64,000 nucleotides of DNA from Bacillota bacterium. Lineage in GTDB: Bacteria > Bacillota > Clostridia > TANB77 > CAG-508. Below, one piece after another: positions 2,930 to 37,448 of the stretch. The DNA lies in assembly GCA_963929525.1 (NCBI GenBank), contig CAWVJB010000020.1:2890-66889 (forward strand), read 5' to 3'. Within the stretch, counting starts at the first letter, position 1; the number at the start of each line of letters is the position of its first letter. The position numbers and the translations under genes are program-made. Below the pieces are notes generated by a model. The model searched no databases. It worked only from the letters and a program-made list of their open reading frames with translations, and had not been told where the DNA came from.

Positions 2930-3011
2930 TATTTTATATATTTTGTTATAGAACATTATTTTTTTTATCCAAGAATATAGATTACTCTAAGGATGGCATA
3001 TATATAAGAGT

Positions 3012-4361
3012 TTATCCAACATAATCTGTATAAATGACACGATTCCAGTAATTTAATAAATGCTGTTTTTCTGATTTAGGAACAATATTAATTCTAATAG
3101 CAGAAAAAGGCTTATCATGAGAATAAGTTGTTTCTTCACCATCAGAAGAGGCTCTTAACCAACCAACAGATGGAACATAAATTTGATAAACAATAGAATA
3201 TTCTTCACAATTCTTTAACTGAAAGGCAATTCCAGAAAGACCATATAAATTTTGTTTTGCAATTTCTTGAGGAATAGGATTGGTTTGGTTTAAGCAAGTA
3301 TTGCCAGCTGTATTATGTCCATAGCCACCTAACTGTAAAGTAAATTTACCCAGAAAATGTATAGCATTTTGACTAGAAATGTCAAACCAAGTAGTAGGAC
3401 TAGGTGAATATCCATAGGTATATTTAATTTCAGAAGATTTGCATATAGCACTTGTGTTTTCTCCCCAATAGGTATAATCAAAAACTCTCCCTTGCAATAT
3501 ATGATTATCAATGTCACCATCCAGATAAGTAATGATTCTTTCAGATTTTTTAGAAGAGGAGTCAATAATGGCTTGTTTTCCAGAAATTTCTCCACTATGA
3601 TTAAATTCATTAACAGGATAACCGCTATTATGAGTGGCATAATACAACATGATATTTTTAGCGTGTTGTATATTAACAAAAACTTCGGCTGTGTTTCCAG
3701 CATAATCTGTTATGGTGATAGGATAAGAAATAGGAGAAGAAAATACTTTAGACAAAGAAGAATTTGTATTATAGAAATCCCAACCATTTATAGGTCTTAA
3801 ATTTTCATTAGATTGAATGATATATTGTGATTTATTATTTTCAATAGATAATTCTTTACAAGTAGAAGTAGGAGAAATATTATCAATAGAAATTCCAGTA
3901 TCAAATTTTTGAACATCATTTTTTTGACCAAAAGAATCTTCGATGATGCCTTCTGGAAAAACAATACTTAGATTTCCATTTCCAGATAATTTAGAAAGCA
4001 TAACATCATAAATCAATTCACCAGAATCGTTAGAAAGTAAAAACATATGAATAGATGGATGAGTAAGCGTATCATTTATAAAAATTTGTATATGATCACG
4101 ATTAAATTGATTTATTGCAACATTTTTTTCTGTAATTTTTACTCTAAAAGAAACAACATGTGAAACATTGGCATATTTTTCATATCCTGTATTTGTATTG
4201 GAAATACCTAAAATTTCAATAGTTGGTTTTTTTTGGATTTGAATTTTAGTTGCAGTAAAAGAATCATTAAAGATATATTTTGAAAAACTTATTTGATTAT
4301 GAAATGGTATCCAAAAAAAGAAAATGCAAAATATAAGAATGATAAAAATTTTTTTGTTCAA
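3012..4361 (-). CDS. Membrane-anchored or secreted protein of unknown function with a possible C-terminal ChW-like repeat
   Basis: N-terminal hydrophobic segment followed by FSKY. YQIYVPSVGWLRASSDGEE...AIRINIV resembles a clostridial hydrophobic-W repeat. Confidence 0.5.
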   Translation of the reverse strand: MNKKIFIILIFCIFFFWIPFHNQISFSKYIFNDSFTATKIQIQKKPTIEILGISNTNTGYEKYANVSHVVSFRVKITEKNVAINQFNRDHIQIFINDTLTHPSIHMFLLSNDSGELIYDVMLSKLSGNGNLSIVFPEGIIEDSFGQKNDVQKFDTGISIDNISPTSTCKELSIENNKSQYIIQSNENLRPINGWDFYNTNSSLSKVFSSPISYPITITDYAGNTAEVFVNIQHAKNIMLYYATHNSGYPVNEFNHSGEISGKQAIIDSSSKKSERIITYLDGDIDNHILQGRVFDYTYWGENTSAICKSSEIKYTYGYSPSPTTWFDISSQNAIHFLGKFTLQLGGYGHNTAGNTCLNQTNPIPQEIAKQNLYGLSGIAFQLKNCEEYSIVYQIYVPSVGWLRASSDGEETTYSHDKPFSAIRINIVPKSEKQHLLNYWNRVIYTDYVG

Positions 4362-4707
4362 AAAATCCCTCCTTAAAATGCATATACAATATATACATAG
4401 TTTAAAATTTAATATTTGTTGGAATTTTATACGAAATAAAATATTTGAATATGAATATATTCATTATATAGTGGAAAAAAGAAAAAGTCAAGAAAAATAT
4501 TTAAAGATAATTGTAAGAAAAGTGTCGAATTTTGCGATGAAAAAAACAATAAATAAACATAAACAATTGACAATCATAAAATATGGAAATATAATGTAAT
4601 TATATTTTTTCTATAATTTTTATCATTCATTTTTATCATTAATTTTTAATTTCAAGATGATTTCTCAAATGAACAAAAAAATAAATAAGTAAAGGAGGTC
4701 TGCCTAT

Positions 4708-5292
4708 TTGAATAAAAAGAAAACATTTTTGCTAGTGATTTGTATCATATTAGCCATGACATTTGCTTTTTTGGGAGGAAATGTATTTTCTAAATACTTG
4801 TCAGAAATAACAGGAACAGGAACAGCTGAAATAGCCAATTGGGTTTTTAAAGTCAATGGAAAAGAAGATGCAGTGCAAAACATAAATTTATTATCTACAT
4901 ATCATAATGAAACATTAATTAATAATAAAATAGCACCAGGAACAAGTGGAAGTTTCAATATTGTAGTGGATGCAACAGGGTCTGAAGTAGGAGTAGAATA
5001 TGCTATACACTTTTTAAATGAAAGTGAAAAACCAGAAAATTTAATTTTTATCTATGATAATGAAGAATATTTTACAATACAAGATTTAGAAAAAGATTTA
5101 ACAGGAATAATAAATGCAAATGATGAAGAAAAAACAAGAACAATTACAATTTATTGGGAATGGCAATATGAAACTGGAAACAATGAAAATGAAATTAACC
5201 AAAATGACCAAATTGATACAAATAATGCAAAGCAATTAGAAAACTATACATTTGATATCAATGTCAAAGGTATACAAGTTATGCCACAATAA
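4708..5292 (+). CDS. Secreted protein, paralog A, with TasA/camelysin-like signal region (function unknown)
   Basis: TTG start 9 nt after AAAGGAGG. Signal helix is followed by GGNVFSKY (compare TasA GGGTWAAF). KIAPGTSGSFNIVV and IYWEWQYE are shared with 6099..6722. Confidence 0.6.
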   Translation: MNKKKTFLLVICIILAMTFAFLGGNVFSKYLSEITGTGTAEIANWVFKVNGKEDAVQNINLLSTYHNETLINNKIAPGTSGSFNIVVDATGSEVGVEYAIHFLNESEKPENLIFIYDNEEYFTIQDLEKDLTGIINANDEEKTRTITIYWEWQYETGNNENEINQNDQIDTNNAKQLENYTFDINVKGIQVMPQ

Positions 5293-5537
5293 TTAGGAAT
5301 TTACAAAAGAAATAAAATAGTATGAATATGATAACCCCTAAAAAATATATAAATTAAAATATGGAAATCAAAAATTAATATGGATATTTTTCCAATTAAA
5401 AATTATAGAGAAATATGTAAAACAAAAGCATATGATAAATTATAAAAATATTTAGCAAAACAAATAATCTTTTTTATTCATTAAGAGGACAAGTTCCTCT
5501 TAATGAATATAGTATACGAGAAAGGAGAAATTGAAAT

Positions 5538-6098
5538 TTGAATGTAAATTTTATAAAAAAAACAAAAGGGATGACATTAAAAAATTTAAAAAAAGAACAA
5601 AAGAAATATCATGATAAAAAAAAAGAAATGTTTATCATTTTTAGTGTTTTTATCATAGGAATAACATTTTTTTTGGGTGTCAGTATTGGAAAAGCAGTTC
5701 ATAATACTAATATAAAAAACACAACCCAAATTGCAAAACCAATTTTAGAAGTGGAAAAAGATTCAGAAATCATGATTACAGAAAATAATAAAAAAGGTGA
5801 ATATCATTTTATGGTAAAAAACTTTAATCATACAGATGAGATTTCACAAGTAGATTTAATCTATTACATAGAAATATTAGAAAACAATCTAGATGATTCT
5901 ATTCAATATGAACTATATAAAGATGACAAAAAATTAGAATTGAAAACAAACAAAACAGAACAAATGACATTTCATAAAAATGTAAAAGAAGAACAAAAAT
6001 ATATATTAAAAGTGACATATGATTCTAGTAAAAATAGCATGGAAGATATTATGCAAGAAATACAAATAAAAGTACATTCAGAACAATTAAAAATATAG
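5538..6098 (+). CDS. Membrane-anchored protein of unknown function (beta-rich ectodomain)
   Basis: TTG start after AAAGGAG. K-rich N-terminus, one TM helix, then alternating-polarity strands. Stop abuts the next gene. Confidence 0.55.
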   Translation: MNVNFIKKTKGMTLKNLKKEQKKYHDKKKEMFIIFSVFIIGITFFLGVSIGKAVHNTNIKNTTQIAKPILEVEKDSEIMITENNKKGEYHFMVKNFNHTDEISQVDLIYYIEILENNLDDSIQYELYKDDKKLELKTNKTEQMTFHKNVKEEQKYILKVTYDSSKNSMEDIMQEIQIKVHSEQLKI

Positions 6099-6722
6099 GT
6101 GAGAAAAATGAAAAAAAACAAAAAAATATATATGATGATCATCATCAGTTTGGTATGTATCATTTTGCTGACAATCTATTTTATACAATATGATTTTTTA
6201 CAAGAAGATTTACTATTTTTTCAATTATTCCATTTAAACACATATTCCAATGATAGCTCAGAAAACAATACTTCACAAATTCGTAATACGCAAAAAAATG
6301 CACATATGGAAACAATTTCTTTTTGTGTGCAAAATCAAAATAAAAAATTGAAAGCATTAAATTTAAATAATACTGTAAATAATCAAACTTTAGTAAATGA
6401 AAAAATAGCACCAGGAACAAGTGGTAGATTTGATATTGTATTAAAAAGCTATGAAACTTTAAATTATAAAATTGACTTTAAAAGCGAAAATAAAAAGCCA
6501 ACAAATTTACGTTTCTTTACATCTGAAAATAAAACGACATATAATACCTTAGAAGAATTAGGAAAAAGTTTAACAGGTATTATTTTTCATCATGAAGAAA
6601 AAACAATACCTATTTATTGGCAATGGGATTATGAAATTGATCATCAACAAAATGAACAAGATACCTTAGATGCCGAAGAAATTAAAGAATATCGATTTTT
6701 GATATATGTACAAGGATATTAA
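6099..6722 (+). CDS. Secreted or anchored protein, paralog B of 4708..5292
   Basis: EKIAPGTSGRFDIVL, SLTGII and IYWQWDYE align with paralog A. ATG at 6108 after AGGTGA is the more likely start. Confidence 0.6.
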   Translation: MRKMKKNKKIYMMIIISLVCIILLTIYFIQYDFLQEDLLFFQLFHLNTYSNDSSENNTSQIRNTQKNAHMETISFCVQNQNKKLKALNLNNTVNNQTLVNEKIAPGTSGRFDIVLKSYETLNYKIDFKSENKKPTNLRFFTSENKTTYNTLEELGKSLTGIIFHHEEKTIPIYWQWDYEIDHQQNEQDTLDAEEIKEYRFLIYVQGY

Positions 6723-6800
6723 GGTTACAGTTCAGACCTAATCATCTAAAAATATCATGTATCACACTTACCTTAAGATGATTAGGTCTGAACTGTAACC
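6723..6800. repeat. Family A palindrome, copy 1
   Basis: Perfect 25-bp arms ggttacagttcagacctaatcatct / agatgattaggtctgaactgtaacc with a 28-nt loop, flanked on both sides by TATTAA. Confidence 0.9.
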
Positions 6801-6879
6801 TATTAAGCAGAGAAAGGTTATAAAATCAATAAAAGTACTTGTAAAATGCGAAAAGACATTATATAATAAAAAAGTAGAT

Positions 6880-6954
6880 TGGGGTATCGCCAAGTGGTAA
6901 GGCATCGGACTCTGACTCCGACATTCCTGTGTTCGAATCACAGTACCCCAGCCA
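6880..6954 (+). tRNA. tRNA-Gln (CUG)
   Basis: 75-nt cloverleaf TGGGGTA...TACCCCAGCCA with a U1:A72 pair, anticodon loop CTCTGAC and TTCGAAT T-loop. Close to E. coli tRNA-Gln2. Confidence 0.9.
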
Positions 6955-7078
6955 AAACAAAACGGAACAGGATATAGTTATGCTAGAAATGAAATGTTTA
7001 TCATATCAGAAATTCTCATATAATCATAAATTTGGAACATACTAATATCAAATTTATACAAATATGGAGGATTTAAGA

Positions 7079-7666
7079 ATGACCAACAATATTTCTGGCA
7101 TTACTTTAATTAGTTTGGTGATGACAATTATTGTATTATTAATATTAGTATCTATTACGACATACACTGGAATAGATACAATTCATTCGGCTCAATTGAC
7201 AAAATTTACGATAGAATTAAAAATGATGCAACAAAAAGTGAATGAATTATATGATTGCTATATAAATGGGAGAGTTGTAACAATAAATGGAACAGATTAT
7301 GTGGGAAAAGGAGAATATGCCAACCAACATATAGAAAATGAGCAACAGCAAACAATTCAAATTAAACAAGGCGTTCAAGATATTGGAAAACATATAGAGG
7401 ATTATTTTACAACAAACGAGTTAGAAACAATTTTTTCAATAGAAAAATCAGGAGTAACAGACAAAGAAGGGTATAAATATTATGATGAAAAAACTTTACA
7501 AGAATTAGGATTTACAAATATGAAATATCGTTTTTTTGTAAATGTTGCTAATAGAAGTGTGATATGTACAGAAGGATTTCATGATGGAGAGAATATATAT
7601 TATACATTAAACCAAATTCCAGATGGTGTATATAATGTGCAATATAACAATATAGAAATCAACTAA
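7079..7666 (+). CDS. Type IV pilin-like protein lacking Glu5
   Basis: GGAGGA lies 7 nt upstream of ATG 7079. N-terminus is MTNNISG|ITLISLVMTIIVLLILVSI (prepilin-like leader and helix with Ser at +5). The ORF track start at 7064 is less likely. Confidence 0.55.
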   Translation: MTNNISGITLISLVMTIIVLLILVSITTYTGIDTIHSAQLTKFTIELKMMQQKVNELYDCYINGRVVTINGTDYVGKGEYANQHIENEQQQTIQIKQGVQDIGKHIEDYFTTNELETIFSIEKSGVTDKEGYKYYDEKTLQELGFTNMKYRFFVNVANRSVICTEGFHDGENIYYTLNQIPDGVYNVQYNNIEIN

Positions 7667-12629: not shown

Positions 12630-13379
12630 ATGTATTATAATGATGTACATATAGGTTATTATTTAGTAGTAGCCATACTAGGTTTATTGGTTGGACAATT
12701 GATGGATTGGGCAAATAAACGATTACCAGAATATAAGAAATTTTTATCATTAGATATATTTAAAGAATATAAAAGAAATTTTAAACCAAACTATGTATTG
12801 ATGTTATTAACTTCAGTAATTTATATAACATTGGTTTACACATTTGGCATAAAAGATACGTTTATTGCGAATTTAGATTTAATAAAATTCTTAATTTTGA
12901 CACCAATGTTGTTATCAGCATTTACTATAGATTACAAATTACAAATCATACCAAATCGATTAAATCTAACAATATTTGAATTTGGATTACTGTTTGCTTT
13001 CATATATGGATTATCAGATGTAGCAATTACTTTAAATATGTTATTAGGAATGCTAGCAGGTGCTGGAATTTTCTTATTAATCACATTAGTAGGTGGACTA
13101 TTTTATGGTAAAGAAGCCATGGGATTTGGTGATGTTAAATTAATGGGAGCATTAGGACTATTTTTTGGATTGTCCAATATTGTAGTTATTACATTAATAT
13201 CATTTTTAATAGGTGCAATTTTGAGTATTGGATTGTTAATTACAAAAGTAAAGAAAACAAATGAATATATACCATTTGGACCATTTATCGTAATTGCAAC
13301 ATTCATTAGCATGTATATACCATTTGAAACAATAAAATTTGTATTAATGAAAATATTTACATTAGGAATGTATAACTAA
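12630..13379 (+). CDS. Prepilin peptidase (A24 family)
   Basis: Polytopic membrane protein with GFGDVKLMGALGLFFG and IPFGPF motifs. No other type IV pilus or competence machinery genes in the window. Confidence 0.85.
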   Translation: MYYNDVHIGYYLVVAILGLLVGQLMDWANKRLPEYKKFLSLDIFKEYKRNFKPNYVLMLLTSVIYITLVYTFGIKDTFIANLDLIKFLILTPMLLSAFTIDYKLQIIPNRLNLTIFEFGLLFAFIYGLSDVAITLNMLLGMLAGAGIFLLITLVGGLFYGKEAMGFGDVKLMGALGLFFGLSNIVVITLISFLIGAILSIGLLITKVKKTNEYIPFGPFIVIATFISMYIPFETIKFVLMKIFTLGMYN

Positions 13380-35750: not shown

Positions 35751-36029
35751 CTTAAATTAAATGAAAATAAAATATTCTTAGAGTATTGAAATTCAAGTTT
35801 AAAACAAGAAATAAAATACGATAATATATTGACTAAATTCAACACAAATTGAATTAAATAAAAACATAAAGAAAAAATTTTTTTGTAAATAGGTAGTAAG
35901 AGCATTAAAAAATAGAAAGAATGATTGAATAAAGAGAAAAAGAATGCAAATACTATTAAAAAATAAAACATGTTTACTAATGAAAAATTGTATAAACATA
36001 GTAAAGAAGAAAGAAAAGGGGAATTTACA

Positions 36030-37448
36030 ATGAAAGAACAAAAGAGCAAAAAGAATAATGGTATTACTATAATTGCATTAGTCATTACAATTATAGTCTT
36101 GTTAATATTAGCAGGTGTAACGATTGCAACATTAACAGGAGAAAACGGAATTTTGACAAAAGCAAGTGAAGCAAGTGAACAAACTAAAATATCAGAAGAA
36201 AAAGAGGCAATAGGAATTGCATATAGTGGAGTAATGGCATATAATTCAAGAAATGAAGTAAGTGACATAGATTTAGAAAATGAATTAAAGAATAATGGAT
36301 ATAATACGACAGTGACAGATAATGGAGATGGCACATTAAAAGTATTTTTTAAAGATTCACAAAATACTTATAAAGTAGAAAATGGTAGTGTTTCTGAATA
36401 TATAGTAACTGAACAAAAAATGAATTTAGAAACAGGAACAATCCAGACAATCAATTCTGAAACAAAGGAAATCATAAGTGAAGAAAAAGTGGCTATATTA
36501 AAAACAATGAAGTTTTCAACTTCTGCAACAGAAATCTATTTTGTGGATTCAAGAGAACAATCTGATCCAAAACAATATTTAATAGACACATATGGTATTG
36601 ATGAAGCAAATATTGAAAATATAGCTTATAATGATAATTGCTTACCAGTTTATATGGGAAATAATGGAACAATATATTATGTAGCAAGCCAAGGGAATAC
36701 TTACTTGAATAGTGAAGAAGAAGGTGGAGGGTATTGCTTATTTGGAAGAACTGGAGCACCAGCGATTCCAGCACTTCAATCACTGATAAAATTGGATCTT
36801 ACGAATTTAAATACAACATATGCTACAAATATGGCATATATGTTTGCTAAAGCAGGGCATAAAGCATACACTACAGGAGAATACTTGGAAATTATATATG
36901 GTTCGAATTTTGATACTTCTAATGTAGTAACAATGGAATCTATGTATGCTTATGTAGGAATCAAAAATATTATATTACCAGAGTCTTTTAATACAATAAA
37001 AGTGACAAATATGTCATATATGTTTCGTGGTTATTCATCACGATCAATGGTAGAAACAATAGATGTGGGAGAAAATTTTGATACCTCTAATGTAACAAAT
37101 ATGTCACATATGTTTTTGTATTGTGGACTGGACACACTAATATCAATTGATTTAGGAAAAAAATTTGATACTTCACAGGTAACGAATATGGATTCAATGT
37201 TTTTTGCATGTAGTTATGTGTTACCATCTTTAAATTTAGGTAAAAAATTCAATACGACAAATGTAACAGAATATACAAATATGATGATGGGTTGTGGAAA
37301 AGATAATCTAACTGAAATAATCTATGAAGATACGATAGCAAATTTTGAAACAAATTGTGAAATTTTGATCAGTGCACTTGGAAAATCTCCATTTTCTAGT
37401 TGGGATTATCAAGTAACATGTACAGATGGTGAATATAGTGTTAAATAA
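36030..37448 (+). CDS. BspA-type leucine-rich-repeat surface protein with pilin-like N-terminus
   Basis: MKEQKSKKNNG|ITIIALVITIIVLLILAGVTIA leader, followed by repeated FDTSNVTNMSxMF units (DUF285/BspA LRR). Confidence 0.75.
   Translation: MKEQKSKKNNGITIIALVITIIVLLILAGVTIATLTGENGILTKASEASEQTKISEEKEAIGIAYSGVMAYNSRNEVSDIDLENELKNNGYNTTVTDNGDGTLKVFFKDSQNTYKVENGSVSEYIVTEQKMNLETGTIQTINSETKEIISEEKVAILKTMKFSTSATEIYFVDSREQSDPKQYLIDTYGIDEANIENIAYNDNCLPVYMGNNGTIYYVASQGNTYLNSEEEGGGYCLFGRTGAPAIPALQSLIKLDLTNLNTTYATNMAYMFAKAGHKAYTTGEYLEIIYGSNFDTSNVVTMESMYAYVGIKNIILPESFNTIKVTNMSYMFRGYSSRSMVETIDVGENFDTSNVTNMSHMFLYCGLDTLISIDLGKKFDTSQVTNMDSMFFACSYVLPSLNLGKKFNTTNVTEYTNMMMGCGKDNLTEIIYEDTIANFETNCEILISALGKSPFSSWDYQVTCTDGEYSVK

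Follow-up and report, generated by a model that had tools for sequence, protein, structure and literature searches.

A conserved four-gene module of remote TasA relatives in uncultured gut Clostridia, proposed to build a SipW-processed surface fibre

Background

In Bacillus biofilms the main protein scaffold consists of TasA-type fibres, and the same has recently been recognised for biofilms of Clostridium perfringens and of archaea. The present analysis concerns a cluster of four genes, here termed gA, gB, gC and g449, in a 64,000 nt stretch of DNA (the window) that represents positions 2890–66889 of contig C20 in the genome of an uncultured member of the Clostridia. The genome is 1.88 Mb in 106 contigs and has a G+C content of 27.8%. 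Public sequencing runs and related records place the organism in the guts of chicken and other animals.

The closest described systems are the tapA-sipW-tasA operon of Bacillus subtilis and the sipW-tasA-calY operon of B. cereus (PF12389; structure 8aur). The module resembles these in that its subunits are beta-sandwich proteins with profile homology to TasA, and in that the signal ends in G-G-x-T/V-aromatic-small-x-aromatic and is followed by a flexible N-terminal segment. There are several paralogs per operon in both cases, the family is linked to SipW-type peptidases, and gC, a possibly anchored accessory paralog, would be comparable in role to TapA. The module differs in the motif after the proposed cut, which is K-Y-[ILV]-[ST]-E here and [AFY]-F-[ST]-D in TasA. 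It also has no sipW in the operon, but has an additional gene (gB) and a 449 amino acid (aa) protein with immunoglobulin-like (Ig-like) domains. The module proteins fall below the PF12389 and TIGR04088 thresholds, and the hosts are uncultured gut Clostridia with small genomes of 28% G+C.

The sipW-bsaA-bsaB-bsaC operon of C. perfringens (Obana 2020, PMC7395162; bioRxiv 10.1101/2024.11.04.621531) is likewise a clostridial operon of remote TasA paralogs. It has a SipW, a predicted donor-strand exchange polymer and a larger accessory protein encoded in the operon. The accessory protein has Ig-like domains in the module, whereas that of C. perfringens has a von Willebrand A domain. The module gives no support for a link to a type IV pilin, and its proteins have no match to the NCBIfam models of SipW-exported proteins. 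Kivimaki et al. (bioRxiv 10.1101/2024.11.04.621531) describe the family as divergent in sequence, with frequent multiple paralogs per operon that suggest heteropolymers. TasA-like subunits, donor-strand complementation and an archaeal-type signal peptidase are also described for the bundling pili of archaea (AbpA of Pyrobaculum calidifontis, PMC9245690); no entry for these pili is among the top 50 fold matches of gA.

From the comparisons given below we consider it probable, though well short of certain, that gA, gB, gC and g449 build a SipW-processed surface fibre of the donor-strand type, and that the peptidase is encoded elsewhere in the genome.

Results and discussion

Four genes represent a conserved module

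Gene gA (positions 4708–5292 of the window, + strand) encodes 194 aa. It is separated by a 245 bp spacer from gB (5538–6098, + strand, 186 aa), and the stop codon of gB abuts the start codon of gC (6099–6722, + strand, 207 aa). g449 (3012–4361, - strand, 449 aa) is divergent from gA. An initial annotation, made from the letters of the window, had listed these four open reading frames and a fifth, a pilin-like gene at 7079; all five were found. It had placed the products in no clear family. This is correct in that Pfam and NCBIfam scans of the five proteins give no match above threshold, but gB belongs to the same superfamily as gA, as described below. An LP.[TSA]G sorting signal is absent from the five proteins. 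The genome has eight sortase genes, none of them on the contig of the window, and the contig has no SipW-type peptidase gene either, in agreement with what the annotation had said of the window.

A comparison of 80 related loci shows gA and gC in all 80, gB in 79 and g449 in 76. The strand and the side of g449 vary among loci, and its membership in the cluster is kept. In distant relatives g449 is downstream of gC and on the same strand, which implies an ancestral order gA-(sipW)-gB-gC-g449. The four genes are thus one conserved module. Related species that carry it are from chicken, human, mouse and rabbit gut metagenomes.

The gA family is remotely homologous to TasA

The gA protein has a signal-like N-terminus, a flexible segment (residues 28–40) and a beta-sandwich. 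The sequence that follows the hydrophobic helix is ...AFLGGNVFSKY. It has a helix-breaking GG and small residues at -1 and -3 before an invariant KY, and the proposed SipW cut is GGNVFS|KY. An AlphaFold model of gA (predicted local distance difference test score, pLDDT, 87.3) displays a helix at residues 3–26, a low-confidence segment at 28–40 and then the beta-sandwich. The gA family is large: it has 2014 representatives at E ≤ 1e-3 and makes up 2,000 or more clusters when grouped at 50% identity. In an alignment of 74 members that have 31–53% identity to gA, Y30 is conserved in at least 90% and the consensus is T-[FY]-[AS]-K-Y.

This alignment was compared by hhalign with 14 PF12389 proteins taken from other Bacillota genomes. 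The probability of homology is 97.1% (E 5.1e-11, 159 columns). Common signal peptides may inflate profile scores, and the signal and the N-terminal strand were therefore trimmed; the values are then 91%, E 1e-6 and 107–120 columns. Three pairs of segments are in register between the gA family and PF12389: APGT with APGD, WxWxYE with lPxxAGNxYQG, and the C-terminal TGTQ with AxQ. A TasA-like signal and strand had been proposed for gA from its letters alone, and in the profile comparison KIAPGT does line up with the strand that carries N[ML]APGD. The best match of the gA model in a Foldseek comparison with the PDB, a check that the annotation had suggested, is the TasA fibre 8aur_A (probability 0.98, E 1.1e-3), a weak match with template modelling (TM) scores of 0.33 and 0.30 and a root mean square deviation (rmsd) of 8 Å.

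A six-frame search of the whole genome with PF12389 gives no match at E ≤ 1. When the 74 family members were scanned with Pfam and NCBIfam, none was above threshold, and PF12389 is not among the 25 most-matched of the 93 Pfam families obtained at E ≤ 1. The models of SipW-cognate proteins in NCBIfam (TIGR04087, TIGR04088, TIGR04089 and TIGR04090) do not match proteins of the window; TIGR04087 is matched below threshold by two of the 74 members. None of the 120 close homologs of gA listed has a name given by its source. Judged from profile comparison, the family of gA and gC is remotely homologous to the TasA/camelysin superfamily and is not a member of PF12389. The name camelysin could suggest that gA is a protease. 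This was set aside, since the name is considered to go back to a misidentification.

gC, gB and g449 share features with gA

gA and gC can be aligned over their whole length with 33% identity (BLASTP E 9e-28) and have the motifs KIAPGTSG.F.IV, [DS]LTGII and IYW.W.YE in common, so that their earlier designation as paralogs with these motifs is confirmed. A profile comparison of gC with gA is significant in the sandwich only (hhalign probability 100%, E 3e-44). gC consists of a hydrophobic helix, a conserved segment [KQ]Y.F.QEDL[IL]FF[KQ]LF, a variable linker and a beta-sandwich of the gA type. The residue that precedes KY is not small in gC orthologs, which argues against cleavage of gC at this site.

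The N-terminus of gB is long and basic. The protein has a single hydrophobic helix, its beta domain is small, and GVS[VI]GKA[VI][HY]N is its conserved motif. The hhalign probability between gB and the gA family is 96.4% (E 1.1e-9), and by this measure gB is a remote relative of gA in the same superfamily. PF12389 is reached by hhalign from gB and gC only by way of the gA family.

g449 begins with a basic N-terminus, a hydrophobic helix (residues 3–26), SFSKY and a flexible segment (25–40). Beyond the flexible segment are two Ig-like domains and a conserved, beta-rich C-terminal domain of ~210 aa. The AlphaFold model (pLDDT 91.2) has the helix followed by low confidence at 25–40, so that its start is laid out like that of gA. 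In both models the low-confidence segment comes after the proposed cut site, which is an indirect sign of strand insertion into a neighbouring subunit. Foldseek gives generic Ig-domain matches only, and none that is specific for the C-terminal domain. The profile comparison of g449 with gA is limited to the signal and N-terminal segment (hhalign probability 79%, E 1.7e-5, 37 columns).

The sequence after the hydrophobic helix of g449 reads ...HNQISFSKY. That the FSKY of gA recurs at this position had been pointed out in the annotation, with its conservation in homologs left to be determined. Neither K28 nor Y29 varies among 43 orthologs of g449 with identities down to 31%. Together with the conservation of Y30 in the gA family, this shows that the FSKY motif of gA and g449 is more than a chance similarity.

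The second Ig-like module of g449 (residues ~98–257) has the motif NE.IRP..GW..S...LSK.F...Y...ITDYAGN. The module is seen again elsewhere in the genome, in a pectate-lyase-like protein of 1082 aa with Big_2-like repeats (C97:22625–25873) and in a dockerin-like protein of 212 aa (C59:5756–6394). The recurrence gives no clue to function.

The gA family is linked to SipW-type peptidases

A search of the genome for SipW, proposed in the annotation, returned 10 paralogs of the TIGR02228 (SipW) type, on contigs C11, C88 and C104. Ordinary Peptidase_S26 is represented by one gene (C97:13408–13992). The other paralogs of module genes in this genome, four gA-like and two gB-like, each directly adjoin a SipW gene (4/4 and 2/2); the gB-like ones were found with a gB profile at C88:2886–3470 (E 3e-8) and C11:58946–59518 (E 1e-6). 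In seven of the 80 orthologous loci, an intact small sipW is present between gA and gB. It encodes 123–141 aa and has SxSMxP, THRI and GDNN boxes. Distant gA homologs from metagenomes were within 1–2 genes of a small S24/S26 peptidase in all four cases sampled. The gA family is genomically linked to SipW-type peptidases, and the copy in the window is one without an adjoining peptidase gene.

A similar association is seen across the genus, where 51 of 60 species have the module. A SipW-type match is present in 44 of the 51 species with the module and in four of the nine that lack it (Fisher p 0.012, with no correction for phylogeny). Three relatives (G307, G319 and G352) have the module with no adjoining peptidase, and each has an orphan SipW, one per genome, that has no substrate gene beside it. 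The orphans (L138:4865–5491, L139:4550–5152 and L140:4526–5182) are 200–218 aa, have a basic C-terminal tail and are in housekeeping neighbourhoods. The genome of the window has no such orphan, and a peptidase from the loci on C11, C88 and C104, which are linked to McrBC-like genes, would have to act in trans.

These three loci are at C11:38000–61500, C88:46–20506 and C104:150–8000, with two to five SipW-type paralogs each. Their products include gA-like and gB-like proteins, proteins that have a signal of the TYAWF type, coiled-coil proteins and giant proteins of 2573 and 4322 aa. An McrB-like AAA+ protein with a membrane anchor and an McrC-like (DUF2357) protein are encoded there too; in this genome the McrB-like protein is confined to C11 and C88. 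The loci match the CoCoPALM class named in Bell et al. 2024 and hold gA-like and gB-like paralogs beside SipW. Unlike them, the module in the window has no McrB-like, McrC-like or SipW gene.

Expression signals and transcripts

Strong Shine-Dalgarno sequences are located upstream of gA (AAAGGAGG), gB and g449. The divergent spacer between g449 and gA is 346 bp, and no sigma-70-like matches of the region are better than the two that it contains. The site facing gA (4567–4595, + strand, TTGACA-17-TATAAT) matches the consensus at 12 of 12 positions and is the top match of the 5.1 kb scanned; the start of gA is ~110 nt further downstream. The site facing g449 (4463–4491, - strand, TTGACT-17-TATAAT) matches at 11 of 12 and is ~100 nt upstream of the g449 start. 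Overall, shuffled sequences give as many promoter-like matches as the region does. Both sites are positional hints, to be read by their position and score.

A hairpin with a perfect stem of 15 bp is in the gA-gB spacer at 5475–5509 (+ strand; TATTCATTAAGAGGA-CAAGT-TCCTCTTAATGAATA), immediately before the ribosome-binding site of gB. It occupies the spot where some relatives have the small sipW. The hairpin has no T-tract, and no canonical terminator was found after gA. It may set the ratio of gA to gB expression. In one relative (locus L015) the sequence of the hairpin is found as well, translated inside an extended open reading frame, so that it is conserved there.

The module genes are present in RNA-derived assemblies. 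In a chicken-gut metatranscriptome, error-free contigs represent g449 (2944–4547), gA and its flanks (4524–5304), part of gC and the pilin-like gene. The contig depth is 17.5 for gA, ~1–2 for gB and ~4–12 for lysS, depth being a rough measure of expression and carry-over of DNA in RNA runs being possible. These values suggest that gA is the most abundant transcript.

The segment at 2826–2930, between a DUF3792 gene and the 3' end of g449, has a high depth in two chicken-gut metatranscriptomes. The bin mean is 53–56, with local values up to ~140–170, and neighbouring segments do not exceed 17. Two hairpins are formed by the segment when folded (z -3.4), with a U-rich tail after the second, and it has no Rfam match at E ≤ 1. 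It may represent a small RNA or a stable fragment of a terminator, or else an element common to other organisms.

A model of fibre assembly and alternatives to it

Export, the site of cleavage, the acting SipW, polymerisation and the roles of the subunits are proposed here by analogy with TasA (PMC9674648), TapA (PMC10151520) and BsaA. Each protein would enter the membrane by its basic N-terminus and hydrophobic helix. A SipW-type (archaeal/endoplasmic reticulum-type) peptidase would cut gA, g449 and probably gB after a small residue that precedes K-Y or K-A, e.g., GGNVFS|KY in gA and QISFS|KY in g449. The flexible N-terminal segment set free by this cut would become a donor strand and, as happens in fibres of TasA and BsaA, enter the beta-sandwich of the subunit that comes next. 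gA would be the major subunit and form the shaft, as no other gene of the module has so strong a promoter-like site and ribosome-binding site or so high a depth of RNA contigs. gC is predicted to remain uncleaved in the membrane as a base or nucleator with a role like that of TapA, since it has no small residue at the cut site and has a conserved hydrophobic segment after the helix. gB may represent a minor or adaptor subunit. g449 may be a tip or adhesin, in view of its two Ig-like domains and conserved C-terminal domain.

Several observations weigh against this model. The most important is that seven of the 51 same-genus genomes with the module have no clear SipW-type gene, and two of the seven are at least 95% complete; SipW may not be strictly required, or metagenome-assembled genomes may miss sipW. 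The genome of the window has no ortholog of the orphan SipW of its relatives. The window itself has no SipW gene, and a pseudogene search of the gA-gB spacer gave noise only and no remnant of one. Similarity to TasA is also limited. The fold match of gA is weak (TM 0.33, rmsd 8 Å), and a profile search of PDB sequences gives no match at E ≤ 10. PF12389 has no match at E ≤ 1 to gA, gB, gC or g449. An NCBIfam scan shows none of the proteins of the window at the TIGR04088 threshold, and two of the 74 gA-family members touch this model weakly (best E 0.0058, below threshold). The roughness of contig depth as a measure bears in the same direction on the role given to gA.

If the hydrophobic helices were uncleaved signal anchors, the module would encode four single-pass surface proteins, i.e., a coat or adhesin complex, and no fibre. 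The long hydrophobic stretches, such as helix 3–26 in the models of gA and g449, would fit such anchors, as would the N-terminus of gB, which has ~30 residues and is basic and cytoplasmic-looking. The absence of a small residue before KY in gC and the seven related genomes that have the module and no detectable SipW are in keeping with this as well. However, the GG and the small -1 and -3 residues before KY in gA parallel the GGAT.A.F of the TasA family, and the gA family is homologous to proteins that are known to be cleaved and secreted. The consistent linkage to SipW would also be without a reason. Permanent anchoring of all four proteins is considered unlikely.

Cleavage by a LepB-type signal peptidase I would produce soluble or wall-associated monomers, and SipW would be irrelevant to this SipW-less copy of the module. 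The canonical Peptidase_S26 gene on C97 could provide the enzyme, and this would accommodate both the lack of SipW in the window and its apparent lack in seven of 51 module-bearing relatives. It would not explain the conservation past the cut site ([FY][AS]KY and the strand that follows), which is typical of dedicated pairs of peptidase and substrate, nor the sipW inside the orthologous operon in seven of 80 loci and the co-occurrence at p 0.012. Processing by LepB is quite improbable on these grounds.

The pilin-like neighbour and the McrBC-linked loci

The pilin-like gene (7079–7666, + strand, with an alternative start at 7064) is 340 bp downstream of gC. Its start is likely 7079, because the conserved upstream codons form a Shine-Dalgarno sequence. 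The annotation had this gene close the cluster, which is not upheld. A tRNA-Gln(CTG) gene (6880–6954, + strand; ARAGORN; Rfam RF00005, 62.6 bits) is located between gC and the pilin-like gene, and orthologs of the latter are present in 26 of the 80 loci. The pilin-like gene as a part of the operon or of the core module was ruled out for these two reasons. The orthologs encode 173–716 aa and are highly variable in their C-terminal part. The leader, MTNNISG|ITLISLV, is short and has the Gly, but position +5 is Ser and not Glu; TIGR02532 and PF07963 do not match the protein in the Pfam and NCBIfam scans.

The genome has at least nine dispersed pilin-like paralogs including this one, and those inspected have G|ITLI[AS]LV and no Glu5. 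They are at 7079–7666 and 35970–37448 in the window and on contigs C75, C24, C18, C10, C21, C3, C82 and C14, with the N-terminus G|ITLI[AS]LV[IM]TII. The presumed major pilin of the PilB/PilT/PilC locus on C75 is in the set without Glu5, and a set of pilins of this kind throughout a lineage is unusual.

A functional coupling of the module to the pilin-like gene and to the machinery of type IV pili has a precedent in C. perfringens, where secretion of BsaC, a protein of the bsa operon, depends on the pilin PilA3 (bioRxiv 10.1101/2024.11.04.621531). The genome encodes PilB, PilT and PilC on contig C75 and has two A24 prepilin peptidases, one of them at 12630–13379 of the window and the other at C75:7646–8461. 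With a tRNA gene in between, retention in 26 of 80 loci, a variable C-terminal part and at least nine dispersed paralogs of which this is one, coupling to the module has little probability.

That the module provides alternative subunits for the McrBC-linked CoCoPALM machines of C11, C88 and C104 is very improbable: gA-like and gB-like paralogs do adjoin SipW paralogs, McrB-like AAA+ and DUF2357 proteins there, and these loci hold the only SipW genes of this genome, but an McrB-like protein is found in just 10 of the 51 same-genus genomes with the module, and dependence of the module on such machines was rejected, since most relatives that have the module do without one.

Conclusion

The kind of system described here is already known, and the module adds to it a very large branch that has no label. 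New features are the distinct motif, the conserved set of four genes with an Ig-domain protein and the interchangeable location of the peptidase. A wider proposal goes beyond the processed fibre favoured above, and is put forward tentatively as a doubtful one: the gA family may represent a branch of the SipW-dependent donor-strand fibres that is major, has gone unrecognised in gut Clostridia and has a recognition motif of its own, [FY][AS]|KY. The fibre would be a heteropolymer with a gC base, a gA shaft, a gB adaptor and a g449 tip, and the peptidase would be interchangeable, i.e., encoded in the operon, as an orphan or in the McrBC-linked loci.

The practical gain is modest and consists of a family definition, a predicted cleavage motif and subunit roles that are open to test. 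The position of the peptidase gene, which is in the operon, an orphan or at other loci only, represents a natural experiment on the pairing of SipW paralogs with their substrates. Uncultured gut Clostridia with small genomes almost universally carry this divergent four-gene version, which is unlabelled in current databases. If the module does form a fibre with an Ig-domain tip, it would be a candidate for the attachment of these abundant commensals to mucus, to feed particles or to each other.

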